Assembly (NCBI GenBank): GCA_051294905.1
Contig: CM119371.1
Coordinates: forward strand, 14,510,001 to 14,574,000
Reading direction: 5' to 3'
Length of the DNA: 64,000 bases
DNA from: Botryllus schlosseri
Lineage: Eukaryota
Position numbers and translations under genes: made by a program
Shown: piece after piece, positions 21,601 to 51,600 of the stretch
Position numbering within the stretch: position 1 is the first letter of the stretch
Layout: each line of letters starts with the position of its first letter
The notes under the pieces: generated by a model
Seen by the model: the letters and a program-made list of their open reading frames with translations, nothing else
Told to the model about the DNA's origin: nothing
The model's database searches: none

Positions 21601-24600
21601 AACTATTGCAGCTTGCAAAAGTTGCTTGCCTCACAGGGAAGATATGGCTTCATTTTTGAGTCTTACTAATGCTTGGTGTACAATCGTCAATTTCTGTCAA
21701 GAGATTTTCAGCGAACCCCTAGGCCAAAGGTCCCACAAGATGCAAAAATTGATTATTTTCAAGACTTTGCTAATTGGCTTATAAAATGGAATGGATATAA
21801 CCCCCAGAACTAATGTCTGTCAAAGCAAACCTTCAAAGCTCCGATTGTCACCCTGCAGTCGCAGTCACTGCTTATGCAAAATTTGTTAGCAGAGGGGTAT
21901 GAATATGTTATTCCCTGAAAATTCCAAAGTGATCCGATTGAAAGAAGGTTCTCGCGGTATAGGCAAATGAGTGGGGAGATTTCTGTATGTTTAACAGAAG
22001 TTACCAATTCTGAAAAGATAATTCTGCTCCGTTTCATCCTAAAAATTGAGGTAAACTACTGGGAGCATGATATTGGTGTTTCAAGTTCAACTCATTTTGA
22101 TCATTTCAAACAAGTCATTGAAGATGTGGCGATTGAAATTACCGAATCAATTCTATCTCCTGACAACGAGGAGGTGTCGTATGTTGTGGCTGGGTACAAT
22201 GCTAAGAAGGTCCTCGAATAATTGTCTTGTCAAATATGTTATGAGTCCTTTTTGATGAGTCCTGTGGTGCCCGTACTGCAGTAATTCATTTCACTTGCAG
22301 AACTTCTATGGCTAAGCTTCATGTAAGTTTTTCAGAGTAGTTCCAAATGAATGAATTTCATTTTCACGTGCTTGAATTCGTTTTACCAACATGCAATAAA
22401 ATCCTTCTACATGCTCAAGTTGGGGATTCTCGTTACATTGTCTTCTGCGTTGGTGGATAAAGACGTTGCGACGCTGTCACTTGGCTCTTAATTGGGTTGT
22501 TTCACCTGAAAGTACTAATTTTGCCTGTTATACAGCTTTATTAGACTTGTCTGGCGAGGCGTCTGGTATCGAGAAGTGAGATCGCAAACAATCATTGAGT
22601 CAGTCGTGATGTCTGTTTTGTAAGCGTCGGCCTCTTATATCCTGCAAGTGTAATGTGCCATATTAGGCCGTAAGTATCGTAGGCCCCGCCTCAATATAAT
22701 CCAACGAATCAAGTTAGCGATCGGTTAATCATCCGCGGTGGCACTATGGCGCTCCATAACATTTCCGGTCGTGAAAGGTTGCACAAACCAATCGACAGGA
22801 ACGTCCGTATATTACCCGCTAAATCACAGCGTACTAAGGAAACTGTGTCGCTTGTCAAGGGTCAACTGAATTTCAGTAAAATGACTCACGAACACTGCTA
22901 TTCTATTTCAGGCGAAAGCAATTGTTGCATTCGTAAAAGAACGCGGATGGACCTACATATCGATAGTTTACGATGACGAGACATATGGCATAAATGGTTT
23001 TCACGGTAATGAACATATAGATACTATAGCATAATATTGTTGGTTCGTAAAGTATATTGGTATTGGGTTACTCGTTCAGGGTTCTTATTGAAATCCGAAC
23101 AGGTTTACTGACAACTTCCCGATAGTTTTGATTGGAAACCCTGTTTTGTAAAAATCTTATGCTGAATTTAGAAATGAAGGTTCCTGCTAGTGCAGAGCGG
23201 ATCGGCAAATTCTCTGATCCTACTCCGATCCTGTTTTCCAAAGCTCTGGTCCGACTCCGGTCCGACTCCTAGGCCGGATTCTAGAAATGACAGTGATCCG
23301 GTCCGAAAAACTCAGATAATACTCATGTACTCACAGGATGGTATTAAATATTGATTCAAACAATGCAAACAGGAAATTAAAACCTCAAAGATCAAACCCA
23401 TCTCAAACTTATCTCATGTAATTATGCCAACTTGGACTTTGCGTGACTGTGAGAAAGCTGTGTCCTTGTATTCTGTGTCTGCTTTCTTGCGGTGACGCTT
23501 AAAATAAATAATTCATTTCGACTGCTGCAATAAAATAGAATTTACTGTTCTCTAACAACTCATAACGAGATGCAGCGCAATTTTAGAAGTACGAGATCAA
23601 GCGAGGGCAGAGGGCATATGCATCGGCACTTTTCAAGCTATTCCACGCACTCCTACAAAACAATATCTTCGAAATATCGTGAAGAATCTGTTGCATCAAA
23701 AGTCGAAAGGTGGGCTAATGTTTCTAGTATAGGCATTGCCTTCCCAACGAAATGCTCTGCGTGAAAACCTCACACAAATTCGCAAGTTAAGCACTCCGAA
23801 CGACCCAATAATCAATTGTCGTCAGGTTATATTTTTATCTGAGCAAGGTGCACACAATGTTCAATGCGATGTAATGTTCTTGTCTTTTGATGTTAGTCTC
23901 TATCCAGCGGATCTTTCTTGCTCTTTCCCATGTCTTGTGAGTGCGCTGGGTCTTTTTCTGGGCTTCTCCTCGCCGTAAGAATAGGGACGTGGGGAAAGAG
24001 GAGCCCAGAATAACCTCCGACGCGGAATCGAACCCTGGCCGCCGAGCGGCAGGTCCTTATCATCACCATCACGCTATCTTCCCTGCAAACCAATCGCTCT
24101 TTAAAACTTCCCGAGGCTTGAATAACATCTACCTTGACTCTTAACGGCGTGGTAGAATCATGGTATTTCATTTTTCATGATGACAATGGCATGATAGGGA
24201 TGTTTCTAATTGGAACGGTTTTTAAAAAGTGTTCCGAGGGGATTAGGAGGCCACTTGTTCGGTTTTCTTTTTTAATTTGACCATCGTTACTTCATAATAT
24301 TGTAAAACATGACATGGTGATATTGTCATTACGTTATTTCTACATCTCGGTGTTTGTAGGCGTGTTGGTTGTAATGTATTTAGGGTCAGCGGTACATGAA
24401 ACATATGGCTCATTTGAGTATATACGAATCTGGAGCTCTGCGTTTGACTGAAGGACAGGTTGATAACTCTCGCGCCACTGTGTTCGATGATGATGCGCTG
24501 ATATTATACATCAACTTGATAATTTGCTAGTGGCACTTACGTCGAAGACTATTGCGTTTGATGTGAAAATTCTTATCATACCCCATTTTAATGGGACTTC

Positions 24601-30600: not shown

Positions 30601-33600
30601 AGAGAATAGAGAAAAGAATTTATAACATACAATACATTGGCCATTTACAAATTGATATAATACAATTCGAGCCTGCGCCAGTGGGTGAGGACTACATAAA
30701 CTATATTCGAGTTCAATTTCAATCAAGCAATATGTTTGGTTAAGGTAAGAACAGAGAACAGAAATATACATTTTGCTATTAAATTACTTTACTATACTAG
30801 TTTACGACAACGTAAGCTGTAAGTTTCGATCAGTTCGTTTGCGGTCAATTCATTTGTGAGAGAACAATGGAGGGTCAGTAAAACGCACGATCATTGAATG
30901 ATTGGTCGCTTTCACGGGTTACACCAGCATATTTCGCTAACAATCCGACCATATGCAATATACAGTGATTTCTATCGACGCCGATTACTTGATGATTTGA
31001 AATTGACTCGTGAATTTTGCTTCGAGTCACGAGTCAATCCACATGACTGATATGCCGAGTCAAGTCAAGTCATTTTAGCAAAGTGACTCGAGTCAAGTCA
31101 TACGAAAAACGTGACTCGAGTCATTCCAACACTGCTACACACGACACTTGCTACCAAAACAAGGCAATGCCATCTTATCAGCCTTAATCAAAACATGAAA
31201 TGATCATGAAAGCGATCTTACGCGGTTACTAACCCTATGTTTCCTTTACAGCCATACAATTGGAGAAGGAGTTGAATGAAAAGGTTTATAATACGGAATC
31301 AGTATGCAGCAAGCCGTGCGGATCTGGACAGGCTATTGTGATTCAAACGGAGGTCTGTCAATACATCTCAACATATAGCAATCGATGCAGATATAGCTAT
31401 ATACTTTATCATTTCCGTTTACGTTCAGTGCTGCTGGCATTGTGAGCAATGCGCTGATAATGAATTCGTATCTGACAACGGCACAGCGTGTACCACATGC
31501 TCACCGGGACACAAACCCAACTCGGAGAAGACTGGATGCCATCCTCTCGTGATAATGTATGCTAATGGCAAATTGTTAGCTAAATCACGAAATTATACGA
31601 GTTTATATCTGTCGTGAGTAGTATAGTCGATCGGTCGTGAGCGGCTATTGGCTCTTATGGGCGCGGCGGTGAGGTGCCTGGAAACTCGTGGTGGCATGCT
31701 AATGTTTTTTGGTATACGTGCGGCGACATGCTAACGACGATAAATGTGTCTGTCATGTATTCTTACGGGATCTGTGGTGACTCGCCATGTGTTCTTATGG
31801 GTGCGGTCGCATGCGGCTATTGTGTCTTATGGGTGCGGTCGTGAATCGCCCTTTCGGTATAGACATCTCTGGCACGTCGTACTTTCGCATGTCGTGCTTT
31901 CGCGTATAGGTTGTGTTGGTGATTCGCCATGTGTTCTTATGGGTGCGGTCGTGATTCGCACTTTCAGGCATCTCTCACGCGGTGTTGAATATGTACGAGT
32001 CACCAATAATAACCGCACAAACGGAAACGTGGCTTGCAAGAGAATTAAGCAGTGCGTGCGACCTATATTTCGAATGACCTGCGTGCGGAATTGTTTCCCG
32101 GCCAAATGCGTGCTACTATCGATTATTACACTAATCCATTCAGTGTGAAATAGTTTGCTAAATCTAGGAGTCACTTCCAAGGTAATATTTTGGTAATTAG
32201 TTTACCACAGAGCCGGCGTAGACGATGATTCGAATATCAACAATAACCGCGTTCACAAACTAAAACTTCAAAAATGTGTGAAATAGTTTGCAAAACCCCG
32301 CGATCGCAGACAAGATAATGTCTCGGACATAACCATCTTTCGCGACTTGGTGTTACAGCCATATCGATCGCTCACGCGGTGAAATATTCGTAAGCATCAC
32401 TCGCAGAATTATATTTTGGTAATTATTTTGTCACAGAGCCGGCGTAGACGGTGATTCCAACACCAACAATAACCGTGCACACAAACTAACACTTCAAAAA
32501 AGGTGTGAAATATTTGTAAAATGCTACGATCACTCACAAGATAATGTCCCAGACATAACCATCATTCGTGACTTGATGTTACATACATACCAATCGCTCA
32601 CAAGGTAATATTTTGATAGTTTGGTACGGAACTTGATTTCACTCGTAATATTTATTAAGTAACGAATAACAGACCGCCAGTGTCGGTAACTTGAATAGCG
32701 ACAAATTGTCACTTATTTCCGCTCTAACCCTAATCCTTTGTGAAGTGAACGCTTATTCAAAAGGGTGTGATATAATTTTAAAATCCAACGACCACTCACC
32801 GGATAATGCTTCAGACATAGCAATCCCTCATACCCGCTCACAAGGTAATATTTCGGTAATTAGTTTGTCACAGAACCGTCGCAGGCGGTGATTCGAAAAC
32901 CGACAATTTGTCACTCGCCCACGATCGCTATATGTTTCAAGCCTCCAGAATAGTGGCTGACTTTATTTGCGTGATAAGATCCATGAAAATATTCAATCGA
33001 TGTGTTAGTTTGTCAACTTGAAATGTAACTCACTACACAAATCAAGTTGAATCGTATTTGAATGTATTGATTCGACCCAACTCAAATCCTTTGACAAATC
33101 CTATTAACGCGATCTGTTGAATCGAACGTAAACTGAATATTACTGACGCCAACATTCACCCGCATCGGATCATTCACACATTCCACGCCGCTGTTTTAAC
33201 ACTTATAGAATCAATACCAACTATCTCTAACCTGATAATATTCAATCATTTTGGTAATTTCCCAACTTTAAATCCATTCGCGGGCTGTACTAAAGGTAAA
33301 TCCAAATAATCCAGAATGAAATATTTGGACTTTGACATTGCGCGAATTGAAATAGGTTTGACAAACATGACCACCAACTTTCACCCAGTCACATTTCAAG
33401 ATTATACTTTGAAACAATCCTTGAAACTTACAACTCTATTCACGACTGAGTTTTCCGTTTATCAAATAGAGTTTCAGTAAATACTATCGCGATATTTTAA
33501 TGTGTTACTACACACAATAGAATCATTCAATGAAATAACACCTGTTGTAAATATTTCTAACTTGACAACCACTCGTGCATACCGCGATCGACTTGTGACG

Positions 33601-36600
33601 CGATGAGTTAAATCGGAATATTTCAATCTATTTGTCGAAACCTTGAACAAACTATCAGGTTATTTTTTGTTGCAATCGAGTGAACGGAAATAGTATTACG
33701 TCTCAACATTTCAACATCTTCCCATACACAAAAGAGTAAAATACAAAAAACCTTGTCAAGTCAATCCGTTTGTAACTTACCCAACCAGAACAAAAAGTAT
33801 CCTTATGAAAAGTAGACAAGACTACGCAAGTAATCACTACAACAGGGCCGGCCAACCCGTGGCCCGCGGGCCACATGTGGCCCGCGAGAAGGTTTTGGGT
33901 GGCCCGCGAGGTAATTTCCGAAATTTCTAATATCAAAAATGGATTGCACAGATTGTGAACTTGCAAGGCCAACCAAAAATTTGATTAGTTTGGCCGCAAC
34001 ACTTAAGATGTGATGACTAAAATATCAGTTCCGACGCATTGACAGATCCATCAGCCAGTCACATATTGGTATATCTTCGTACACTACAATAAAGCAGAAT
34101 AATTTGGGATGGATTTATCAAAAATAAAAAAAAAATTCTGCATGCTTAGCGCAACATGTTGTCACTCGCTTCCTTGTTTTTAATATTGCTGCCCTTTTCG
34201 TGAAAATGGAAGAACGTATGATGTATCAGATTGAGTCTAACTATATTCGCGATTACGGGACAAAGTGTCGTTCAACATATGCGACCTTGCGTTTGCACTC
34301 ACAGTAAGATCGTTGACTATGAAACCTAGGCACGGAAAGATTGACGCATGTTGGTCGCAGCTTTCGATATCGATATGTCCATGCGTCGAATAGCCCATTA
34401 CCCGCAAACTTAGCCCAGCGATATACGGCAGGCTCGCAATATAGTCAAGTGACAATATTATTGACCTATGAACTTCAAAAAATTTTCGCACTTCGCGCGG
34501 TAAGTGGCCCGCGCAATATTTCGTCCATCGAATGTGGCCCTTTGGCTGAAAAGGTTGGCCGGCCCTGCACTACAACCAACAAACATATCAAGTTCGGTTT
34601 TAGGCATATACCACCAACTCGTCTTATTGGAATGTCAGCAACTCTTTACGGTCATAGTTACAACCGCATTAACTAATTTACCCGGCCAACACGTCATGAT
34701 CATTCCTGAAATCAACACAAACGCGGTCACTGACTTGAGTTAACCACAAAACGGCATCAAGTTTTTAATCCACTTGTAGCTGACGGATTATTCGAATGCG
34801 TCGATGGAGAATATTATTGAACTCGTCGGTATTGTTACTTCAACAAATTACACCGACTGCGAAAGTTAATATCGAATGGTAAGACTTTTATGAAGTTGTG
34901 TGTTTAATGAAAGCGATTGGTTACAAGTATGTGTTGGGGAAAGAAAATTTATTTTTCTGTATGTGACGAAATGAAAATAGATTCGTGGTTCTAATTGAAT
35001 TGTGACTGTGTTGTTTTAATGTAAGTTTCAACAGGTAGACTTGACACTGAACAACAATTCGACCCACAAAAGATATTCGTTGTATGATTTGTCACTGGTG
35101 TGTAAAGGGTTAGGAATATTTTGAATGATAATATCTACTAGCTGTTTTGTTGTGAGGGCGATCATGTGATGACTCAGCACTTTTCGTTAGCAAAGTAGAT
35201 TGATCTATGTGAAAGATGTAAGGACCGTGACTAGAAAACTACTTTGTTGTTGGGGTACTGCTATGGCATTGACATAACCCTCTGGGAGTGAGTATGCTTT
35301 TCTTTCACGAAAGTTTACGTACCCCCGTTGTAATAAATTTGTGTTAACTAGACTAGGATGGATACCGCAATTGTGCTTGACTTACACATGGTATTCGCAT
35401 ACTGTACACATACAAACTTTTGTGTAAACAACTCTCTGATGTTTCTGTTAGTACTAGTTCTGTGTTGAACTATTTGATTATTAAGATACATGAACACCCA
35501 TTCAGACAATAAAGGTCTTGTGATATCGAAACAGTTTGTAGAGTCTGACCAACCATTCTTTAGTTTCGTAATGCGAGAATATCGAGTAAAGTTAATTACT
35601 TAGTGTGATGTTAATATCCTTCGTACTTTTGTAAGAGTTGTGGAGTAACATGCAAAGTAACTAGTTGACACAAACAAAATATTGAATGACTGCTAACGCA
35701 TTGAGTTCATAATCCAAGAGGGTGAAATTTGTTTACTGTTAAACTAACATAACTCATATCCAGCAAAACAGATACAATCCGATGATGTGATGTTGGTCAA
35801 TATCCATTTTGTAAAGATTGAGTAAATCCTCCTCCGTCAGGTGGGTGTGATTCGAATCAATAGCATGTTACACATAAACATCATTTGTATTGAGGGTGAT
35901 ATTGTGAAGATGATGCCGCAACAACACAACAAGTAATATTTTGTATCGGGTGTTTGTACTTTAGGAATAGCGGAGTGTGCGATATTTTGGATATGTGTGC
36001 ACTAGGGTTGTTCAGAATTGATCGACTTTCAAAATGTCGTGGTTTTCAGTCCGATTCCCATGCCTTATACCATAAAAACATATTTTAGGTACTTTTTTTC
36101 GTAATTCATCCCTTGCATCCGTGTGCACATTGAGCTGGAAGAATATCGGCTAAAAATAGGGGATTCCCCTAAAATTTGAGTGTCGCTATTCGGACTAGGC
36201 TAGTAAAACGTCATATATAAGTAGGTTTTATGTAGCTATTGCGGTTAGAGTGCTACATAACCTCACTATAGAAAGTATTGTCAGTTCAGGACACCATTTT
36301 CATGTCCCACAATGCCTTAGAACTCCTCAAAACTGCCTAAGACTGATAGTCATTTTGTTGGATCACCTATCCTACACTCCTCAACCCTACCGGAGATTAT
36401 TCATCAATTGCCGGGATCACCACGTGCAAGAATACAACTGTAAATGTATCATTCACTCACAGCCACATTATAAACATCACATTGTTCAAAGGAAACGAAA
36501 CAAAAAGGCAAAGAAACAGATCAACTTGGCAAATACTACTTAAATCAGGTCCGGATGAAATGGTTGCTTTAGAGCACTGGTTCCCAACCTGTGGTACGCG

Positions 36601-39600
36601 TACCACTAGTGGTACGCGAAGGTCTTCCAGGTGGTACGCGAGTAGATTCTGTTTTTTTCCGACCGAAGGGAGTTACTAGTTCGGGTAAGGTTGATTTTGA
36701 GGTTTTTGAAGCCGTCGTCTCACGCTATTCCCCATCAGCTGCTAATTTTCCCTTATACGTGGGAATGCAAGCAAGGATTTTCATCCCTGATGACTATCAA
36801 ATCGAAGAAACGAAACCGACTTGTTGCGCCCATACATGAGTTTTGATGCGCTGTAAGCAAACGTACACCACGCATCGACAAGGTAGTGGAAAATAGACAA
36901 AATGCAGCAATCGCATTTAATAAAGTGACTTTCGAATGTGTGTTGATATTTCATTATCTTGTTCTTCTTGTGACTGGTGTTGAAAAAACAATTCCATACA
37001 TCCCATCAACCCTGGGTGATAATGCCTAGTTCAGGGGTGTCAAACTCAAATTGAATCGCGGGCCGGATCGAAGTCATGAAATCGCTCGCGGGCCGAACCA
37101 GTCAACGGAATCCAAAATGTTGCCTCGTGCCATTGCTTCTTGCTGGAATACTTTATTATCAATCATATACTATATAGATAATACACGGATCGTAGGGGTT
37201 TCATTCTAGCGAGTCGCAACACCATTATTTGCGAGCAATGAAATTGACGAAAATACGATGTTTGTCCGGTTGAATACAATGGCATTACCGGCGATACAAT
37301 AAGACATATTTCAGTGTTCCCTTTGCTTTAGTCCAGGGGTGGCCTACCTAAGGCCGTAAGAGGGAATTTGTGCGGCCGTAGACATGCAATTCGGATTTAC
37401 GAATTGACTCCCGATTTCTTGAAAGATTTTAATTAATCTTGAAATTTTCTTCGCGCTGGGCGCGATTCAATGCGACTACATTTTTCGATTTTAATATAGT
37501 AGCACCCTTTGCAATCAGAGCCCCAAAATACAGATGCGAACATCAATGGAATGCGCCTCACATGGAAATATCAGCTCGGAATCGTGTGCTCCTGACTATA
37601 CTAAAAATCCTGATGGCAGGTCAAGAAATAACTGCTTGCTACAAAGTTACTAATACCAATCGTCCCACCCGAGGATGCATCATAATTTATAACTTGCGTT
37701 AAATTTTCGAAAACACCCCTACATCAACTCTATACCAGTGAATCTGATCACACGGGATGAGAAAGAATAAATGTTTGATGGTATGATGTAAAACTATTAA
37801 TATCAATGATGAAATTCATTGGTGAAACTGATTTTTTTCGCGCTTGGCACGACTATGAGCACTTCCATCCTTAACATTACCAGTGACCACTCGCCATTTT
37901 GGTGCGCATTAAGCCTACCATTAAATAGATTAGTCCGGAGTTTACCAGAAATGGACATAGACACATTAACCTGGGTATTTGGCGTCCAACTCGTTCATTA
38001 CGACTATGCCCTGGAATGCGGCCGTAGGCTACACGAGTAGTCGAAATGTGAATGACAAAACGGTTGGCCACCCCAGCTTTAGTCATAATCTGGCGTTATC
38101 CCTGCGTATGCGTTGTGATGAATACAAGATATTTAACTGTCAACGCGGACTTTGTAATTTGGTTTATTATTGTGGATGTCGTGGATAATAGAATCTTTTT
38201 TCAATGTACTCAGAATTGCTATGCGGGCCTAATAGAATCGTCAGGCGGGCTGGATCCAGCCCACGGGCCATTATGTTTGACATCCCTGCCTAGTTTATTA
38301 GAATTTGTTAATACACCTCGCATAGGTCAAATATGTGAGTATGACGTCATAAATGGTGGAAACGCGCGTAACTTATATAGGTGGTACGCGAGCACTGCAT
38401 AAAACCTCAAAATGGTACGTGGGTGGAAAAAGGTTAGGAACCACTGCTTTAGAGAAATCGGCATATCTGTTCCCGTTATCTTCCACGGCTTGTAAGAGGC
38501 TCGCTCGCTGTTTTTTGTCATCTGTTTTGAAAGCATCAAAGTCGGTATTCAATTTCACCAAACGCTCTGCTGCGCCGTTTACTATTTCAACGCCACTCAC
38601 AAATTCTTGAGCAGTCACGAAATGCGAATCAGTATGCCATTCCGAAACTGGAAGACTAAACCAATCATGTTCGACATGTATAGCATTGAATAGAAACCAT
38701 GATTCCGGTTCAATTAAAGCAACCATACTCATTGACTCAGAGACAGAGTCAGAGATTAGACTCAGAGGTATAGCCTACCTCTGCGAAATTGTTCAAGGAT
38801 TGGCATTTGCAGCAATTTAGCAGCCATCGCTTCCTCCACTTTGTCAGGAATCTTTGGTTTAGCCGAGAACATTGTTGATACCACCGTTTCCTCGGTGAGA
38901 TGCCAATGATGTTCGCGCATCTTTTTATATGCCACATCAGCAACTGTGAAATCGCACAATGAAAAGTCTGTCATGCCATGAAGGAATTTGAGATCAATAT
39001 ACTGTGCGTCACATGCATTACCAGTTTTCAACCAAGCTGGGACATAAAACAGGGCAACTTTCTAATGAACTCTTCAGAATAGCCCATTTGCTCTCTCCAC
39101 ATGAACATTTTTGACAGTACAGCACTTGACTCATCCATCCAGTGCTATTAGTAGCACCAGGCTTGCGAAAACGATTATCAATATATTGGGCTGCTACAAT
39201 CGCCAAGGTGCCTGTTGTACATTCTCTGTAGTCATTTATTATCAAGACTTCTTTCTGCTTTCCATTATATGGCTTCATCAGTGGAATTATTTCTTGCTTA
39301 GCTTCATCAGCTCTGATCGCCAACCAGCTGCATTCATCAAACTGAAGTATTTAGAGCTTCTTAATTGATCAATATCTTTCCACTTCTTGGAAGGTATTAA
39401 AATCTGTGTTTTCAGGGCCTGTGGTCGCAGATCCAAACACACTTCACTTCCAGACCTCCCCGGGTGACTAGTTCATAAATATGATGGCGACAAGCAGAAG
39501 TAGAAAGTAGAAAACTTTTCTGTTTATCAATTCTTCAAGTAACAGAACCGCACCTTTTTTTTTCCATTGTTTGAGGGTGTTGTGTCAAACACAAGAGCTC

Positions 39601-42600
39601 TGACATTATTTGTTAAATTATAAAGTTCCAGCAGTTCAAATGACAGATCAGCCTGCGCTTTTCCTGTAGCACTCTCCAGAGTTCGATTGCCTTTCTCAAA
39701 TGCGTTGGAATGCGCAGACTATGCCAGCACTGCCGAGGCTTCAAATTTCCCTCCGAAACGACTTCTAGTGAGCTTTGCATCCCAGTGCAATGCAATGTGC
39801 CAAGTTGATCTGTTTCTTTGCCTTTTTGTTTCGTTTCCTTTGAACAATGTGATGTTTATAATGTGGCTGTGAGTGAATGATACATTTACAGTTGTATTCT
39901 TGCACGTGGTGATCCCGGCAATAGATGAACAATCTCGGGTAGGGTTGAGGAGTGTAGGATAGGTGATCCAACAAAATGACTATCAGTCTTAGGCAGTTTT
40001 GAGGAGTTCTAAGGCAGTGTACGACATGAAAATGGTGTCCTGAACTGACAATACTTTCTATAGTGAGGTTATGTAGCACTCCAACCGCAATAGCTACATA
40101 AAACCAGCTTATATATGACGTTTTACTAGCCTAGTCCGAATAGCGACACTCAAATTTTAGGGGAATCCCCTATTTTTAGCCGATATTCTTCCAGCTCAAT
40201 GTGCACACGGATGCACGGGATGAATTACGAAAAAAAGTACCTAGAATATGTTTTTATGGTATAAGGCATGGGAATCGGACTGAAAACCACGACATTTTGA
40301 AAGTCGATCAATTCTGAACAACCCTAGTGTGCACGGTTGTAAACTACGGTTGTTCTTGGGTAGGGATGGTGTGAACCTCTGAAAGGTTCGGGTTCGTGTG
40401 AACGCGAACCTTTTTGAAAGGTTCTGTGTGAACACGAACGTGAACCTCGTGACGTCATATTGCTAATTCCAACCCTATCTTTCAATGAAGTGATAGCCTA
40501 TATTATTGTACACGATATCCAGCGAAGACTCGGGCCACATAATGTCGCATTGCTGAAGTACATATTGGCGTTTTAAACGTCGCTAAATGTATCAACCGCG
40601 GTTATCAAAGGATATAATAATCTCATAAAATCAATACATTCGTCGTTTTGCAAACAATTTCGACGAGGACTTACCAGGAAATATAAGCTTACGCCTTAAT
40701 GGTCTTAGCCAGACCGGACAATGTGTTCGGAATCTGAGTATTGCTACATTGATATTGAGCTGAGTGTAAACGGGTTTCAATACTCGCTACCAATACCATA
40801 AACAACAAGTTATATAGCAGTAGCCAGCACCTTAATCGAACGGATTTGGTTTTAATGATACAGTAAAGATATGAAGTCGAGATTGACCCCATACGCCCGC
40901 TCGATTTTTTACATCAGAAAACGATATCAATGTCATTGATTGGTTGAATAAGCATCATTCGCTGACTACGTATATCGCTCGTGATGTTGTGTGATTGCGG
41001 GTCAAGCTCACAGCAGAGAGTCACTAAATATTCACAGACGGAAAGCTGGATATTTCGAGAAATTTTCGGTAACAAAAATGCAAGTAAATCCTTTAAGGTT
41101 GTCATGGTGCATGCTCGTTTAGTGTTGATTTTTTATGCTGCCAGCGCCATGCATAGAGTGACCCACAGTTGAAATGCAATAAACTTGAACCAAAGATCTT
41201 ATAATAGACACTTACGTGACCTTTGACACGAACCAATCATGTTGCAGCAGGATGTAAACAAAGAACAAGGCCGGGCAAGCTTACTTGAGCTCTTATGGAA
41301 AAAGGTTGAAAAATGAAGGTTTTAAGCAAAATTACGTTGAATTGGGGAAGACTGGCCTTAATGAATAGTAATAGCGTAGAGCTAGTATGTAGTTGCAGCT
41401 TTTAGTCTAGGATGAACATGAATGGTGGCAAGTACGCATCAGCGTGCTGTGTCCAAATGCATGGATTTTTGTAGGATTTTTGACAACTTTTCGGATCAAG
41501 CGACGATTGTTGTATACTATACTATAGGATTGTGGTAATGGATATTTTGACGATTTCATAAGCTCCAGGTCTCGAGCGAAATTTTCAAGCATATCTCATG
41601 TTCAGAAATAGATGCTATAAAATACAGCTGCTGCCACACATCACAATTTTAGTGTATTGATTATGAAACTTGAAAGCTATGGAGATTTTATCGAATTTCT
41701 GGATTTGAGTGGAACAGCATTTTCTTCTAACACCGCGGAGAAAGCTACGAAGTATTTCATGGAGCGCTACGTACACGACTTAGGGACAAAGATTGAGGAG
41801 ACAATCCACTCTTTGTGGAAGCAATATTCTAGTGAAAAGCCAATGTTATCGCAACCTGCGGAAAAGTGAGATACCACACTCAATGGAAATACACATTCTC
41901 AGAAAATCCATTATTGATTCGTCTTGCACTTGTAAGACAGGGTAAGTAAGGAAAAAAACATTTTGTCAGAGACTCCTGCAATAGATATTGTAACCATGAT
42001 TTATTTTCACATTAGGTACTGATATATGCTCTCATGTATATGCATTATGCATTGATTAAGACAATCCAGCACCTGAAGCTACAAGGACTACATTGTGATT
42101 TGCATCAGCATCAGTGAGCTCGATCGTGATTGACAAGCAATCTCTCGACCGTACTCGCAACCGATCAACTCCTGCCTCAAGGTAGATTTTGGTGTATCTG
42201 GTGTCTTCAGTTTTATAACATTCCACCAAATGCAAATAATCCTAGAACATATTCACCTGGAGAATTGTTCATTCAACAAATTGGGCATCTAAATGAGCTT
42301 CAATGCACACCACTGGAATATATAGTATGAATAGACATGCACTGTTGGTACACATTAACCATGGCACCGCGCAATTACGATCCGTAGCATGCTATTAGGC
42401 ATTACGATATTCACAATGGAACTGAATTTTCACAATTGCTGAATATGTTGCATCATTCATTTTCAATTTTCAATCTTGAATTATAGAGTAAGCAATTAGT
42501 CCATATTTGGTTAGTTGATACACAATGCTGCATAGTATGACACCAGACAAAATTTTATCCTCCTTGATTCTTCCGATCAGTTGTTCAATACGAATACGTT

Positions 42601-45600
42601 GTCTCGCCATCTTTCTTGTTGTGGAACAGTCTGGCTCAGGCATTTGACAGTGTGCCAAATCATGTGCAGGAATATTTAAATCTAGATTCAATTTCTTGAT
42701 TTCAGACTCAATGGTGAATCCCTTTACTGCCATGATAGCATTTCCTGGTTCACCTTAGCTGAACTCCATCATTTTCTCGCATTTCTTGTCGAATCCACAT
42801 ATTTCACTAATATTTCGATCTGGAATGGTCCCTTCCCTGTGAACAGTTCCTGCACAAAAGTAAGTGCGCCACAATCCATCAATCCTTTCAAAGTTGTATG
42901 TGATTTATTGACAGTGATTAATCATTCTAGTTTTGAGAAATCATGAATGAATGCCAATGGTGCATTTTTAAGAACCACATATCTACATGGCCCAATCGAA
43001 ATTGAATGAAGCAGTTACATACGGTTGACCCAATGGTTTAATACTATGCTTACAGCAATACTATAAATTTGACGTCAGTAGGATAAGTAGGGCAATTCAG
43101 AAAGAATTTATTGTAGTCTAGCATAAAATTTCAGCTTCTCCGCATCTTTTGACGTTATGATGCTTCACTGAGAACTGACCTTCACAAGCAATAATTGTCC
43201 GTCAATTTGAAATTTTCCTGGACGAGTTTCCTGTTTTGTGCTTCTACTTCTTCCAGAAATTTGATTTTCTTGCGTTTTATCCATCGACTTCCTCTTTCTG
43301 CAGCTTCATTAAAGATATCCGTCAAGCCTGCACAAAATATATAATATGTTTATTTTACAGAGCAACACTGCTGTACAGGCACCTATCAAGGCGTACTCGT
43401 CCAACTCATGCAACGTATCACCTCTATTCTTGAATACGATGCTCTCGACAATTTCAATCCATTACACACCATCAAGCAGCAAATCTGGAGTGGAATAAAA
43501 CGAGACACACACCAAGTCGATTGTGGCATCAAGTGTGACAGCATTTCAGATTGGACTCATTTTGAAAGACAGAATTGTTTCATCTAAATTATGTCACGAA
43601 TCAATATTTTTGGTAGAATAATAGATATGTCATTTTATTAATAAAATGAGAATTCAGATGACTACAAGGAAGTCCACATGCCTTTATCCAGATTTTACAT
43701 TATTCCATGCATGTTATTGGCTCTGGGAAAGGTACAAGCGCACACCAGGAACGGTCTGGGTAGCCATCTCTTAAGTTACACAGGCTATTAGCACAGTGTT
43801 TATCTGGCATTTGTCCTGATTGATTCAATATACATTAGCTAGAACAAAAATTGACGATTTCAGCTGGGAACAGATCATATTGCCCAACATATATCATATT
43901 AATATGATCATTGAATATGCAGACCAGTGTAACAGTAATTTGCTAGATAATGATGCAGACTGTAGACTGTACTATATACGATTCCATAAATAGAATGCAT
44001 ATAACGCCAAGCCCACATAATGAATACCCCAAATATCCTGACTCAAGATTAATCTAATACATGCAATTCGGTACGACAATCTATTAGTATACGACTAAGG
44101 ATAATACAGCAATAGTTGCTTCATCCGAAAAGTTGTCAGAAATCGATTCATTTGGACATACCTTGCTGATGAGTGCTTGCCACCATTCATGTTTATTGTA
44201 CGTTAGAACACTGCAAATACATACTAGCTCTACGCTATTACCATTCACCAAAGTCAGCTATTGCCAATTCAATGTAATTTTGCTAAAAACCTTCATTTTC
44301 CTACCCTTTTCCATAAGCGCTCATAGTAAGCTTGCCCGGCCTTGTTCTTTGTTTACATCCTGCAGCAACCTGATTGGTTCGTGTCAAAGGTCACGTAAGT
44401 GTCTATTTAACAAAAAGGTTCACAGTGCAGAACCTACCAAGGTTCTGTTGTGAACGCGAACCTCTAAATTTCCGAGGTTCACACACAGAACACGAACGTG
44501 AACCTCACGTTCACACCATCCCTATTCTTGGGTCTTGCGTCGAGTAAATTAGAACTATGTCTAGAATTCAAACACATCCAAGTAAGTTCTTTAGCGACTA
44601 TGATTACATCTACTTTGACGAGAGGAAATGGAAAAATTCAAATGGATACTACTGACGAACACAAAGTGCAAAATGGTTTTATCAGATTTAGGTGTAGGAT
44701 ATCTTTTCGATTTCTTTACCAGAGTGTGTTTTACAAATAATTCCAGTACACCTAACTATAGGATACATTTGGCAAACATCGTGTAAATTGTTTCTTTGTG
44801 ATGGTAACGACTTTCGGTGGCTTAGTTTCATGTCGGGAATTATTATTTGAGGGTTCAAAAACAATCAATACTACAAATGAACAACAATACAAAACACGTT
44901 TAGTGAATTATAGTGTAGCAAGTACTTCCTTGATATTACGATTGTTGTGCACCAGACATTTCTAGCTGATTTGAATGCATCTAGCAAACATATTCCAATT
45001 TACTTTTGTAATGATCAAAGTCTTAGAGTGCGACCTCGTGATATTTTACATTTAGCGTGTATTATAGAAAAGTGTGAGCGGAGTTGAGTATTAATCGTGT
45101 ACTTGGTGTAGTGCTTTGATACCAAAGAGATATTTTCGCCCTGTGTAATGTTTCAATTCTCTGTTGTGAATTCCGATAGTAACGACATTGATGTTAAATC
45201 CTCACCCGTGGTTATTGTAAGTGAATCCTAAACATCGCAACAGTCGGTATGGAAATCGAACGCGTGCGTACTTTTAGATAGGCGACACTAACAAGTTTAT
45301 TACATCCGTGAAATACTCTGAAACGTCGATTCGTGATTGTGTTAGCTATATTCATCTTCCATATCTGTGGGCACAAGGATATCTTGACTTCGGTTACAAC
45401 TCACTCGAAACGAATTGTCGCGGGTAATCTAAAAAAGCACAAGTCGAAGACGAATGATCTGATTTCAATGAACTAAAAAAGTCCTTTTGTTTTGATGTTG
45501 GATTTAATACAATTTGTATGACTATACCGAATCCGAATCCGAAAGTGAAATGTTACTTTAGTAGAAAAATTGGATGACTCGCATTTTGATATTGATAGAT

Positions 45601-48600
45601 GTGTAGAGTAATATGACTAGTTTATAAAATCTCGGTAATGTTGTCATGTCTGTGATCAATAAATATGTGATCAAGTCTTACCATTCGATATTAACTTTCG
45701 CAGTCGGTGTAATTTGTTGAAGTAACAATACCGACGAGTTCAATAATATTCTCCATCGACGCATTTGAATAATCCGTCAGCTACAAGTGGATTAAAAACT
45801 TGATGCCGTTTTGTGGTTAACTCAAGTCAGTGACCGCGTTTGTGTTGATTTCAGGAATGATCATGACGTGTTGGCCGGGTAAATTAGTTAATGCGGTTGT
45901 AACTATGACCGTAAAGAGTTGCTGACATTCCAATAAGACGAGTTGGTGGTATATGCCTAAAACCGAACTTGATATGTTTGTTGGTTGTAGTGATTACTTG
46001 CGTAGTCTTGTCTACTGTTCATAAGGATACTTTTTGTTTTGGTTGGGTAAGTTACAAACGGATTGACTTGACAAGGTTTTTTGTATTTTACTCTTTTGTG
46101 TATGGGAAGATGTTGAAATGTTGAGACGTAATACTATTTCCGTTCACTCGATTGCAACAAAAAATAACCTGATAGTTTGTTCAAGGTTTCGACAAATAGA
46201 TTGAAATATTCCGATTTAACTCATCGCGTCACAAGTCGATCGCGGTATGCACAAGTGGTTGTCAAGTTCGAAATATTTACAACAGGTGTTATTTCATTGA
46301 TTGATTCTATTGTGTGTAGTAACACATTAAAATATCGCGATAGTATTTACTGAAACTGATAAACGGAAAACTCAGTCGTGAATAGAGTTGTAAGTTTCAA
46401 GGATTGTTTCAAAGTACGATCTTGAAATGTGACTGGATCAAAGTTGGTAGTCATGTTTGTCAATATATTTCAATTCAGACTATGTCAAAGTCCAAATATT
46501 TCATTTTGGATTATCTCGATTTACCTTTAGTACATCCCACGAATGGATTCCGACGCCGCGCTATAACATTTTTGATGATAAGGACTCGAGGATTTTCATG
46601 ATAGAGTTGACGAGTGATTAGATGCGTGTTTTTGTTAAGAGTTTGATTTCATGTTGATAAAGACAATAACTGTATAATGCACATACTTGTGATTCTTGAT
46701 TCTTGTAGAATTATAGTTGGTATTGATTCTATAAGTGTGAAAACAGCGGCGCGGAATGTGTGAATAATTCGATGTGGCTGAAAGTCGGTGTCAGTAATAT
46801 TCGGGTTATGGTCGAGTCAAAAGATCACGTAAAGATTTCTCAAAATAATTAGAATTGTACCGAATTAACACATTCAGATACGAATCAACTTGGTTTGTGT
46901 AGTAAGTTTCATTTCGAGTTGGCAAATTGATACATTGATTGAATATTCTCATAATTCTTATCGCGCAACTAAAGTCAGCCACTATTCGAAGTGTCAAAAC
47001 ATATAGCGACCACCAGAAAGTGTCAAATTGTTGGTTTTCGAATCACCGGCTATGCCGGCTCTGTGGTAAACTAATTACCGAAATATTACCTTGTGAGTGA
47101 TCGGTATGTCTTTAACACCAAGTCACTAAAATGGTTATGTCCGAGACATTATCTTGTTAGCGATCGCGGGATTTGTAATCTATTTTACACTTTTTGAAGT
47201 GTTAATTTACGAGTGTGGGTATTTGTTGGTTGCTTTTCGTGTCGCTGCTGAATACTGAATACTCCTGAATGTAACAGTGCCGACTGGATTAGTGGAATAA
47301 TCGATACGATAGTGCGCGCTCCGAATTTCCAAAACGGACGTATTTAGTGGGTCACACAGATCCAAAATACAACCGCCAACATCTGGTTTTCAAAATCGCA
47401 CAATGCACTGCGGATTAGTGAATTTCATGTTTAGTGATGCCTATACCCGAAAGTATGATATGCGAGAGATGTCTATACCTAAAAGTACGATTCACGACCG
47501 CACCCATAAGAACACATGGTGAATCAGCAGAGACCCTGTAAGAATACATGACAGACACATTACCGTCGTTAGCATGTCGCCGCGCGTATACCTAAAAACA
47601 TTAGCATGCCACCACGAGTTTCACGTTGGTATGCCGCCGCCGCCTGTACCCAAAAGTACGAATCACCAACGCAGCCTATACCTGAAAATACGAGTTGACA
47701 CCGGTTGAGCGATGCCTATACTCGAAAGTACGAATCACCGCCACGCCCATAAGAACACATGGCGAGTCACCACAGATCCCGTAAGAATACACGACAGGCA
47801 CATCATCGCCGCGGCCTATATCCACAACGTTAGTTCACTACGACACAGGAATCCGTGGGTACATCATCGCCACAGCATATATCTGAAAGTGTACCATCAT
47901 CACCACATAGGCACATCATCACCACATGGGGGTCTGAAAGGGTACCATCACCACCACGAGTTTCCAGGCACCTCACCGCCGCAGCCTATACCCGAAAGGG
48001 TACCATCATCACCGCATCCATAAGAACACATGGCACCTCACCGCCGAGAGGGGGGTCAAAAGGGTGCCATCACCACCACGAGTTTTCAGGCACCTCACCG
48101 CCGCACCCATAAGAGCCCCTGCCACATCACGAGCGATCATACTTACTACTGTCGTGTCCGTGGAAATAGCGGCCAAGATGATAATCTGAACGGACTGTTT
48201 TGAAATCTGTATGGAGGGACAGCGTATAGGCGAAATATTTTAGGAGTGACGTGACTTATTTAAAAGCGGTCGATTTCACGCTTTCACAGTCAAAAACGGG
48301 AATAGCAAAGGTGTTCTTTCGCAAGTACGGAAGGAATAAGACTATAACATATTCTTTGGATCTCAGTTTGGATAGGAAGCGATTAAACAACGACTTCACG
48401 TCACTTAGGCCCTATCATACGTTACCATAGGTAGGAATCGTATGGTACCATTCAGTCAAGTCGATTCAGTATCGGTGGGAATGCCAACATTAAGTTAGCT
48501 ATATACCAATTTAACCTTAATTTTTTCCAGGGAGATATCGTACGATGTTGAATACGGCATTGTTTGCATGTGCGTTGGTTGCGTGGGATTGTTCGTTACT

Positions 48601-51600
48601 TCAATTGTGTCAGCAATATATGTCGTTTATCGTGATACGCCGATAGTCAAAGCCTCCGGCAATGTAAGCTTTAGAAACTATAAGTATATCTTTTGGCCTG
48701 GAAATACCTAGTCTTAACCGATGGGACTTCGAGTGCTATGATAGCGGTATGTCAGTGTTCGACTATTCGTTGACCGAATATTGGGGTCAATCATTTTATA
48801 CCATATAAACTGTAAATGAAAAGGTGCATGTGTTTTGCAGATTTGCAACAATTGCGTGGTATGTCAATCACGTTTGTGGCAGTTTTAGTACACGATTTAA
48901 CTTCTACGCCCATAACAGTTGCTAGCAATAAGACCAAATAAATTCATTCCTGTAATGCTTTATACATGGGGTTCGGATGTTTCTGCCTGTCTGAGCCACC
49001 CGCAAGAAATCGCAAAAAGGCTGTACACGTAAACAGACCCCCATCTCACTTCATGCGTATAAGACCTCGTGTGTATGTTTGTATTTGGTCATTCGCACTA
49101 ACTGATGTAAGTGTAAAGTAAATGAGGTACCAGAAAGCGCCGCTGGATTGACCTGCATGCCACGCTATGGTGCAAATGTTAATAGTACATATTTGCAGTG
49201 TGGATTAGCTGCATCACAGGATTTATGACACGATCACTGTACTGTCGCGAAATTTCTCGCTTTGTAAACCACCATCTAGCGGCAGCGAATAACAATGTTT
49301 GAAATATCAGGATTTGACACGATTCATAAAATGTTTCTGTATGTACTGTACATGTACTCACGAAGTATGAGCATTCGTGTATTTCGCAGCGCATAAGGTG
49401 CAAATCTGGTGAATGACACTTTCCGGTACAAATTATGCTTCCACACCCATTCAAATGAGTCAAAAGAAGTCTACTGAGAGAGACAGACATCGTCTGGGTG
49501 GAGTGCTATCTACATTCATGTATCACACCAGGTGCCGCAATGTTCCCTCTAATTTTTCACGAGTCTGCGCAAATACGCCAACTCACTGCGCAGGCCCTTG
49601 GACAACAGTGCGCAACCAGGCCCCCCATAGGGTGATAAACCGAACTTCTGGGGGGCTTCGCCCCCCAGACCCCCCTCGGGCTACACGCTTTACCCCGCTA
49701 CTAATCATCTGTGTCTGGTCTTCGTTTAGTGGGCGTTCCAACTAAACGCGCGAAGCGCTCAAATTTTCTATAATTCATGATCAAATCGGTCAATATCATC
49801 GAGAAATGCATATATTGCTATCAATTTTAATCCTGTTTCTGCTCACGTAATCACATTTACAGGTAAAGCTGATCGAGTGAGATGTGTTAGTAGTATAATT
49901 GCTCGCTCGTGAAGCGTAAAATACCGGAAGTCAAGAATGTTGCATTTCGAAGCCAGAAACGCAGCATTTTGAGCTAGCTAGCAGTCGAAAATCAGCCTAT
50001 GGAGCTTCGGAAAAGCGTCATTGTGGTGCTTCATGGACGTGCATTGTGTATTTCGTGGAACTAATTACACTGTATATCGTGCATATTGTTGATTTTCCAC
50101 GATCGGTTTTGAAAACAGGTGTTTTTAATGTGTAGTGACCTACATATTCCGCGGGGACAAATGACTATGGTATCCTGTCCACTGAATCACTATAGTGGTT
50201 ATATCGCGAATTGTTTCCCGTGGAATAGGTTGGTCTAGAAGCAATCCGTGAGCGTACACAATACGAACCAAATACAACCGCTCAGCGCAAAACTGACCCA
50301 CTGTGTTAAGTATATCACGAATCACAGATGTATACATTTAATGTGTTTATTAGGCACCTGTAATCAAGCTCTTTACAAAAACACGAACAATTTTATCATT
50401 CTCACATTTTTTATCACCAAAATAATTTAGATACTGTTCAGTTGAAAAACCTTGAGATCTTTTAATTAAATATGAAATACAATGATCAGCGCACATATCA
50501 GATTTTTTACTTTGAAGCTGTTGCCTGGTAACGGTGAAGTCCTCTGGACCTAGAAACTCGACTATCTGAGGTTTTAGGGGTGGGATCATAACCATGTTAG
50601 CTATAAAAACGCTTCTACTATATATGTGTAGATTTCGCGCCCCCTTATCGTCATATCACAAAACGCAACCAGCATGCTATAGCCAACCTAACGGATAGTT
50701 TGGTGGCATGGGAGGTTACGACTATTGATGAGAGATTTTTAAATATGAAATTCATACTAAAATACAGAGCTATAATTATGAATTGGAAGTAAATCGCGCA
50801 GAGTGCGAGAAAATTTTTCAGTTGAGCTCAGCGTCGCGATCCCCTTCAGATGCTTTCATGACCTCAAGGGGCACGGGTCCCCCAGGTTGAGACCCACTGC
50901 CTTAGAATTATCATGGTGAAATATAGCCTTCTAAGAATAAGTTTAATCAAGTCCCCGCATTAATTCGATTTTTAGTACGCATTTTATCAATATTTTAGTA
51001 AGTTTCTTCAGACTCTCGCGGGCCGCACAGTCTAGATATCCCTGAAAGAAGGTTTGGTTACTTCTTGTGACTTTAATTGTAACGGTATAATTTGCTACTT
51101 TGACTTTACTTTGAATCTGGATTAGGCATGTGAGGTACGTATAGGCTGCGTAATCGCGGCATGTTAACGAATGGGCTTGATAGTAAACGAATTTCAGCTT
51201 CAATTTATACATCCTATGGTTTTAGTCCATACACAGCAACATTAAAAAGTAGGTTTTATATTTTCAATTTCAAGCAACCTTTCGCGGGCCGTACAGAATA
51301 GCTCCGCTGGCCGAATTTGGCCCGCGGGTCGCACTTTGCTCAGGCCTGGTATAGGGTATCTTGGGTTTGGAGAGGTGAATAAGACTTTAGATTAGTTCAT
51401 TATCTCCCATCCACTACTACCATATGCATCGTAGTGCTCCGACAAGGCAAAAGTTCGTTTAATCCTGGAAGTCGTCATTTTGTGGCTATTTCCCTGAAAA
51501 ATTGCGTTAAATAATCCCCAAAGGCAACACGCTTTCAATATCAAATATACTGCCCCTCAATATCCCCTCTAATTTTTCACGAGTCTGCGCACACTCAACA

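Follow-up and report, generated by a model that had tools for sequence, protein, structure and literature searches.

We examined a 64,000-nucleotide stretch of the Botryllus schlosseri genome (contig CM119371.1 of assembly GCA_051294905.1, positions 14,510,001 to 14,574,000 of the forward strand; hereafter the window, in whose numbering positions are given), in which an intron of a receptor gene is occupied by a large element with Polinton-type ends. We consider it probable that this element is a centre-deleted, insertion-laden copy of an abundant family of palindromic elements with Polinton ends, likely mobilised by a helper, and that its outer arms derive from two family haplotypes, likely through the involvement of two free linear copies in one insertion. 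This account builds on direct observation of the anatomy of the family, the ends that it shares with autonomous Polintons, a common bias toward central CG at the target, the absence of core Polinton genes, a private deletion joint, an empty allele, and further copies whose ends are discordant within intact duplications.

Limits of the element and its empty allele

The element spans 31617-48150 (16,534 bp including nested insertions), starts with AGTAGT and finishes with ACTACT, and is bracketed by the hexamer GTCGTG at 31611-31616 on the left and 48151-48156 on the right. Ends of the form (AGT)2//(ACT)2 and a 6-bp target-site duplication are described for Mavericks by Barreat and Katzourakis 2021 (PMC8097293). 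An original prediction, made from the letters of the window, had proposed these limits, the end motif and the perfect duplication, and all of them held up: among 189 AGTAGT/ACTACT pairs in the window, only the pair at 31617-48150 has identical 6-bp flanks. The inverted homology that it had proposed between 31617-34887 and 45673-48150 was recovered by self-BLAST, at 73% identity in places and up to 99.7% in the innermost part.

An empty allele with an intron of about 434 nt had also been foreseen, and short-read contigs across the site revealed it in two other samples, runs X5 and X6, where GTCGTG is present as a single copy. In run X6 (labelled organism B), one 195-base contig passes from the left flank through a single GTCGTG to the right flank. 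In run X5 (labelled organism A), two contigs of approximately equal depth start at the right junction and have non-element sequence beyond it, and one of them was also found on the left flank. The filled allele is represented by contigs of run X1, which contain both junctions: the right junction has 0 differences from the window over 607 bases and the left at most 3, too few for the left end to carry the right-end haplotype. X1 may be the source sample, in which case these contigs are independent of the assembly and not of the individual. The element is a real, polymorphic insertion.

The window element has neither the protein-primed DNA polymerase (pPolB) and retroviral-like integrase that define an autonomous Polinton nor the capsid/ATPase/protease module. 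When 104 open reading frames (ORFs) from the fetched autonomous loci, including the helper capsid and ATPase (a protease was not identified among them), were compared by tblastn with the non-nested parts of the element, only the GC-rich terminal repeats matched, and no remnants of polymerase, integrase, ATPase or capsid were found, in agreement with what had been read from the sequence of the core. No ORF of 150 aa is present in the element.

The palindromic family and the autonomous Polintons of the same genome

The family unit is about 13-14 kb long, with arms of 6.0-6.7 kb that are usually >99% identical around a loop of about 1 kb. A search with the left end of the element gave many inverted pairs 12.5-21 kb apart (the best 40 of 1763 candidates were scored), and ten loci fetched from it comprised seven palindromes, one autonomous Polinton and two loci with mirrored flanks (C17 and C37). 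Six of the palindromes have arms of 6.08-6.66 kb at 99.3-100% identity and loops of 0.3-1.0 kb; the seventh was completed later. A second sample was drawn as every second match of a loop search (20 of 40). All 20 of these copies have inverted arms, 96.8-100% identical, and 14 have both ends and 6-bp duplications that match, their lengths being 13.0-14.4 kb except for a single copy of 16.3 kb; of the remainder, two showed ends on inspection and four are truncated or run past the fetched stretch. The family thus consists of many dispersed copies with distinct duplications, as had been anticipated.

Three observations on the architecture of the copies may be added. Family members nest within each other. 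Near its inner end, each arm carries a variable array of repeats of 41-42 bp (L043:5570-6100 and the equivalent in all full copies; present in 9 of 9 left halves scanned), which is deleted in the window copy. Near-identical copies with mirrored flanks and no duplication (L033/L034 on C17, L047-L049 on C37 and L008/L009 on C23) may represent palindromic arrays of larger size or duplicates made by the assembly; in the C37 copy, tandem reverse transcriptase plus GIY-YIG (Penelope-like) ORFs are present.

The loop carries a 91-aa ORF (L043:7464-7736; homologues P0001-P0004). Loop searches returned 1081 DNA and 1203 protein candidates, which are candidate counts and not copy numbers; all 150 protein candidates that were scored are strong matches, and the ORF is free of stops in 149 of these 150 best matches. 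It occurs in two types that are 63% identical, with a synonymous divergence (dS) of 0.85-1.04, a nonsynonymous divergence (dN) of 0.26-0.29 and a dN/dS of about 0.3. Four homologues, 69-92% identical, were found in other public data on contigs of 922-1075 bases, approximately the size of the loop. The ORF has no Pfam match and no relative in viral contigs; its Atlas score is 0.76 and its AlphaFold pLDDT is 36. A weak tblastn hint that it might be the remnant of a packaging ATPase (25% identity over 79 aa) was unsupported by profile comparison (probability 7%), and this candidate was dropped. The window copy lacks the loop ORF. The term gene-less, first applied to the element, is not strictly true of the family, which keeps this conserved ORF.

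Subtraction of three top-level nested insertions, by their summed lengths, leaves about 7.3 kb of the window element, the core size first proposed. However, the unique centre of about 2.3 kb that was proposed within this core does not exist. The segments 34881-36011 and 44525-45673 are contiguous, and relatives on C12, C15 and C3 have them in both arms at 93-98% identity; they represent the unpaired remainder of the right arm (34888-35999, plus strand, 96-98% identical to both arms of relatives, and 44525-45672, plus strand, which matches the arms of relatives). Since this sequence sits in both arms of relatives, the window copy must have lost its inner left arm, its loop and its innermost right arm, roughly 6-7 kb in all, at a joint marked by ACTT microhomology (34884-34887). 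Judged from its alignment to these relatives, it is a deletion derivative of the 13-14-kb family unit. The joint was crossed by none of the 39 other best matches (the best 40 of 3315 candidates were scored), and a mobilised short subfamily sharing the deletion was therefore rejected. Because the joint is private and relatives lack the nested insertions, both the deletion and the insertions most likely followed integration. Breakpoints within about 20-200 bp of the window joint (34881) were seen at L054:979-994, L056:907 and L042:1810-1856; these are independent deletions or module swaps, and they hint at a hotspot in a sample that was selected on this region.

The original prediction had also called for an autonomous Polinton with the same termini, and several were found. 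The autonomous element on C5 is 15.96 kb long, has terminal inverted repeats (TIRs) of 439 bp, and carries pPolB (PF03175), an rve integrase with a chromodomain and a weak match to the A32 ATPase; autonomous copies in the genome measure about 16-16.7 kb. Its 432-aa ORF resembles F54H12.2-like proteins, in whose Atlas clusters 14-30% of members are assigned to a double jelly-roll (DJR)-like family, and it is a candidate DJR-like capsid protein; compared by sequence with solved structures, the helper capsid ORF had no match. A search with a pPolB fragment gave 144 scored loci in about three identity classes. Among ten further pPolB loci, all eight from the two closer classes have the family ends and 6-bp duplications; in the distant class, one locus has AGTAGT ends with unrelated subterminal sequence and the ends of the second were not resolved. 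The terminal sequence of the window element is 98% identical to the C5 element over 131 bp, and its right end is 92% identical over 203 bp to the autonomous element on C2, so that its ends are of Polinton type by motif, duplication and shared sequence. An identical terminal haplotype on a helper and a satellite was seen once (L041 and L045).

The satellite and autonomous copies also have a target bias in common. Among copies with both ends found, a central CG occurs in the duplications of 11 of 23 non-autonomous and 8 of 10 autonomous elements, compared to a background of 4.3% (both p <1e-9), and GTCGTG fits this preference. The common bias points to one integrase, and together with the shared ends it makes mobilisation in trans by helper enzymes likely. 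Outside the terminal 0.4-0.9 kb and some short blocks, the family arms do not match the interior of the sampled helpers among the 144 pPolB loci; the matches consist of ends, short blocks and, in two copies, one ORF. Therefore, satellite is a better description than helper deletion. Of the two alternatives first offered, a non-autonomous satellite with Polinton ends stands, and a defective-interfering deletion of the helper genome fits less well.

A foldback cut-and-paste element with an unrelated transposase would also have long inverted arms, equalised in this case by chromosomal gene conversion, and its Polinton-like ends would be captured or coincidental. Most of the arm sequence has no helper match, as this explanation would have it, and foldback elements that extend their long TIRs are known from the description of Galileo (PMC3573991). 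However, the terminal 0.2-0.8 kb, the 6-bp duplication and the CG bias are common to two pPolB lineages and not a third, two palindromes hold the helper's first ORF at 95% identity in both arms, and the arms of the window copy have not been equalised since insertion, even at their ends. Foldback and Galileo elements are marked by 7-9-bp duplications and a P/THAP transposase family sharing their ends; here the duplication is 6 bp and the ends are those of Polintons. We regard a foldback origin as very unlikely and already largely refuted.

Two further observations concern helpers and palindromes together. An intact version of the helper's first ORF (about 95% identical, 214 aa, without a Pfam match) occurs in two palindromes (L043:1212-1853, L044:5254-5895 and L050:1325-1966); in the C8 copy it is present in both arms, and helper sequence can thus be captured and mirrored. 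At 2 of 12 pPolB-bearing loci examined (L045/L046, G000:C5:728137-744095, and L124/L125, G000:C14, at about 12.14-12.16 Mb), an autonomous Polinton lies inside an arm of a palindromic copy, which suggests a preference for family DNA or local hopping.

Copies with discordant ends

The two arms of the window copy had been taken as one palindromic TIR pair. This is accurate for the inner 750 bp or so, which are 99% identical, but not for the outer 1.8 kb. In 400-bp tiles, the identity between the arms is 30-80% over the outer 1.8-2.0 kb and 99-100% further in. Between the outer ends, identity is 82% across the 40 terminal bases and 61% across 300, a level no better than that of unrelated family copies (means of 74.5% and 65%, respectively). 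Over most of their length, the tiles of each arm are nevertheless 92-100% identical to other family members, which argues for a chimera of two haplotypes rather than decay. By this comparison, the arms belong to different family haplotypes over their outer 1.8 kb. The outer left arm (31617-33404, plus strand) has a haplotype other than that of the right arm, and its terminal 28-mer recurs at 11 other genomic ends. After a crossover near 33405-33470, the inner left arm (33405-33842, plus strand) has the right-arm haplotype (427 of 432 aligned bases identical), and the innermost left arm (34568-34887, plus strand) is identical to 45673-45992 at 319 of 320 bases and 93-96% identical to its best relatives. 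The paired part of the right arm (45673-48150, minus strand) is collinear with relatives on C3, C6, C12, C14 and C15, at 92-100%, to about 47300. The inner arms differ by about 6 substitutions in 750 bases, a divergence lower than or similar to that between alleles of the flanks (4 and 23 differences in 243 bases).

The ends of other copies put this chimera in context. The 35 copies with both ends have 32 distinct 40-mers at their termini, assembled from interchangeable short modules, and the left and right 40-mers are the same in 32 of the 35; in two copies the ends are told apart by substitutions or short indels, and in one (L096/97) the first 37 bases belong to different haplotypes. Two single-haplotype censuses stand in for a genome-wide one. 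The left 28-mer of the window element has 12 occurrences in eight elements, of which four are concordant, three discordant (the window copy and copies on C1 and C8) and one truncated. A 23-base module of the right end has 47 occurrences in 30 elements: 17 inverted pairs (judged from paired motif matches alone), four concordant copies with substitutions, seven discordant copies including the window's, and two unresolved, of which one shows discordant ends and duplications that differ at 3 bases. With the window copy excluded, discordance was found in 6 of 27 resolved module-selected elements, or about 12% after correction for the double chance of catching a chimera, and in 1 of 16 loop-selected copies. 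End-discordant copies therefore make up roughly 5-13% of copies.

The window copy and eight others are end-discordant. The discordant tract includes the terminus in all nine and is about 25, 37, 40, 600, 1200 or 1800 bases long or covers whole arms; one of these copies has lost most of its left arm. Eight of the nine have a perfect 6-bp duplication and one has a single mismatch, and unrelated duplications match by chance in 3 of 1482 comparisons (0.2%). It is likely that two ends from two family members within one clean footprint reflect recombination between free copies before or during insertion.

The discordant copy on C8 (L139/L140, G000:C8:21225962-21239531) resembles that of the window in its modules. 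It is fully discordant: 31 bases of its left end recur at the left end of the window element, and the two right ends have in common a 33-base block, a module that only about 30 elements contain. Shared ancestry of the two was rejected, since tile comparison showed no arm-by-arm collinearity, and the likeness of their modules is left unexplained.

Alternatively, the discordant outer arm may have arisen after insertion, either by ectopic conversion or by insertion of a second copy into the same hexamer or adjacent to it, followed by collapse through annealing of the direct-repeat left arms. GTCGTG is itself a preferred central-CG target, family members nest in and beside each other, and internal discordant patches exist, all of which would be expected of such a process. 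However, it would need exact re-use of the hexamer, or conversion to within 7 bases or fewer of the end without flanking homology; it would have to recur in about 5-13% of copies and explain terminal tracts of 25-40 bp; and no intermediate with three hexamers was present among the loci fetched. As described in PMC3573991, Galileo chimeras, which are attributed to ectopic recombination, have non-matching flanks, unlike eight of the nine copies here. We therefore consider an origin after insertion unlikely.

Recombination between free molecules would fit into a cycle of the following kind. Maverick replication is expected to be protein-primed and strand-displacing (PMC8097293), and a helper pPolB would start at the AGTAGT ends of the palindromic element, whose displaced single strand would fold into a 6-kb stem. 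Haplotypes replicating together would recombine or switch templates, producing fine mosaics, and fold-back copying of one arm onto the other would restore identical arms. Unique mosaics with matching arms need both steps, an exchange between haplotypes and then the copying of arm onto arm, and we infer that such copying explains why the two arms match in a family where nearly all copies have a haplotype of their own. A helper integrase would insert the molecule with a 6-bp duplication, sometimes before fold-back copying has taken place or using the ends of two molecules, and copies like that of the window would result. If two free linear molecules underwent one crossover or template switch, an otherwise native element with a foreign outer arm would result, both of its ends being competent for the integrase. 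Integration of one end from each of two molecules, after which the homologous arms would anneal, would have the same outcome and would resemble the two-end chemistry of retroviral integrase; the data do not separate these two routes. After insertion, the unstable hairpin would have lost its centre by microhomology joining and then gathered other transposons. Palindromic snap-back subgenomes of phi29 and adenovirus are fold-back products of protein-primed replication; these subgenomes derive from the helper by direct deletion and are not known to integrate as a family.

Several points weigh against recombination between free copies. One copy, L145/146, has discordant ends and duplications that differ at 3 of 6 bases, and some copies, such as that on C6, have concordant ends and discordant interiors; these patterns indicate that exchange after insertion also occurs. 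In L134 and L136, other family ends lie about 50 bp from an end, so that ends of the family cluster and repeated insertion at one site is not negligible. The estimate of discordance varies with the sample, 6 of 27 in module-selected and 1 of 16 in loop-selected copies. The steps of replication, recombination, fold-back and integration are proposed by analogy with protein-primed viruses, and no free molecule, virion or transcript was observed; the RNA runs X10 and X14 had 0 reads on the host flanks and are thus uninformative on splicing across the element.

Errors of assembly could in principle produce both perfect palindromes, as collapsed or mirrored arms, and discordant ends, as haplotype switches. 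The small-contig copies with mirrored flanks and no duplication (C17, C23 and C37) are what such errors would look like, and the reads inspected were short. However, many insertions and substitutions are confined to one arm, every copy has a duplication of its own, and the short-read contigs of X1 hold both junctions of the window element. The chance that these features are assembly artefacts is in our view very small.

Tentatively, the family may be a genuine satellite of a Polinton virus of animals, in the form of a free hairpin replicon of 13-14 kb that is protein-primed, with a conserved loop gene of its own and a size suited to the helper capsid, whose haplotypes would recombine in a shared nuclear pool and be made symmetrical again in each round. 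Discordant copies would then be fossil recombinants or two-molecule integrations. This is possible rather than probable. The sizes of the family (13-14 kb) and helper (16-16.7 kb) are compatible with packaging in the helper capsid and are no test of it, and according to PMC8097293 Polinton/Maverick particles in animals had not yet been observed. The mode of replication of animal Polintons/Mavericks has so far been inferred from their genes. Mosaic copies with matching arms, about one in ten of which have mismatched ends in perfect duplications, would allow recombination and end-copying among free molecules to be counted from the genome. If this is true, discordant copies would be genomic evidence for extrachromosomal Polinton-type replication in mixed populations, and the form to be sought in tissue would be germ-line DNA that is hairpin-shaped or linear and has ends blocked by protein.

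Related elements, host gene and nested insertions

The end motif, the duplication and non-autonomous Polintons are already known, and the end-discordant class and the proof of an empty allele are added here. In the full-text literature searched, which does not extend to Repbase Reports or supplements, we found no description of an abundant palindromic Polinton satellite or of end-discordant copies with intact duplications. Long-TIR families of the Polinton-2N1 type were reportedly described by Kapitonov and Jurka in 2006 and may bear on the novelty of the long-arm design; that study is said to include an element about 11 kb long whose TIRs measure about 5 kb, with an insertion copied into both arms, from which self-synthesis was argued.

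As far as the two sources describe Polintons/Mavericks (PMC8097293; PMC6431247, Arkhipova and Yushenova 2019), the family has their end motif, 6-bp duplication and GC-rich subterminal repeats. It differs in having no core genes, arms of at least 6 kb instead of a few hundred bases, and haplotype mosaics with matching arms; the window copy differs further in its discordant ends. A non-autonomous Polinton of zebrafish has been named Polinton-1N1_DR (PMC9341505), and the zebrafish elements are likewise gene-poor Polinton derivatives; the family differs from them in its hundreds of copies, its extreme mosaicism, the conserved ORF of its loop and an end-discordant class, of measurable size, with intact duplications. 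Butterfly polintons are reported to have gene-bearing TIRs of about 2 kb and mobile derivatives without polB (bioRxiv 10.1101/2025.02.07.637071). The family shares with these TIR expansion and apparent mobility without polB; the butterfly derivatives as reported keep capsid and protease genes, whereas the family keeps none and is about 93% stem. Galileo/Foldback of Drosophila, in the account of PMC3573991, is similar in its long repetitive TIRs, TIR extension, non-autonomous copies made of two TIRs and chimeras of two subfamilies, but it moves by P-element cut-and-paste, with TIRs of up to 1.26 kb, 7-bp duplications and chimeras with non-matching flanks. Transpovirons, from their description in PMC5499653, are also helper-dependent linear DNA with inverted ends, but they encode a helicase, measure about 7 kb and travel with giant viruses.

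The host is a class C G protein-coupled receptor gene on the plus strand, with exons for ANF_receptor, NCD3G and 7tm_3 domains. The NCD3G exon (31429-31556, plus strand) finishes 60 nt before the element, and the next exon (48531-48663, plus strand), with the first 7tm_3 helix, is in frame with it. The intron between them is 31557-48530 and would be 434 nt long without the element. The window copy by itself is a decayed insertion, and no effect on the host gene was shown. The family as a whole burdens the genome heavily with unstable palindromes, which lose their centres and draw in other elements, in this case within a polymorphic intron of a receptor gene. In the small upstream intron, at 31355-31358, runs X5 and X6 have about 29 extra bases that are missing from the window, and the divergence between alleles of the flanks reaches about 10%. 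Further back in the receptor gene, an earlier intron holds a P-element-like 3.4-kb element (19331-22688) with 102-bp TIRs (92% identical), a THAP domain and a weak TNP GTP-binding match.

Each of the three top-level insertions in the window element has its own duplication. The first, at 33843-34567, is present in the left arm only, has an 8-bp duplication (CACTACAA) and is presumably, from its ends and duplication, a MITE (miniature inverted-repeat transposable element) of hAT type. The second, at 36000-40329, has CACTAG ends, 535-bp TIRs (97.8% identical) and a 2-bp TG duplication, and we take it to be of CACTA/CMC type; it contains broken ORFs on the minus strand and more MITEs, and no Pfam match was found in it. 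The third, at 40361-44524, is a hAT-type MITE with an 8-bp duplication (TTCTTGGG) that holds a further insertion of 3.2 kb at 41203-44407, with 313-bp TIRs (83% identical) and a DDE_Tnp_4 remnant below the cut-off (E 1e-4). A copy of this MITE without the 3.2-kb insertion is present in L140.

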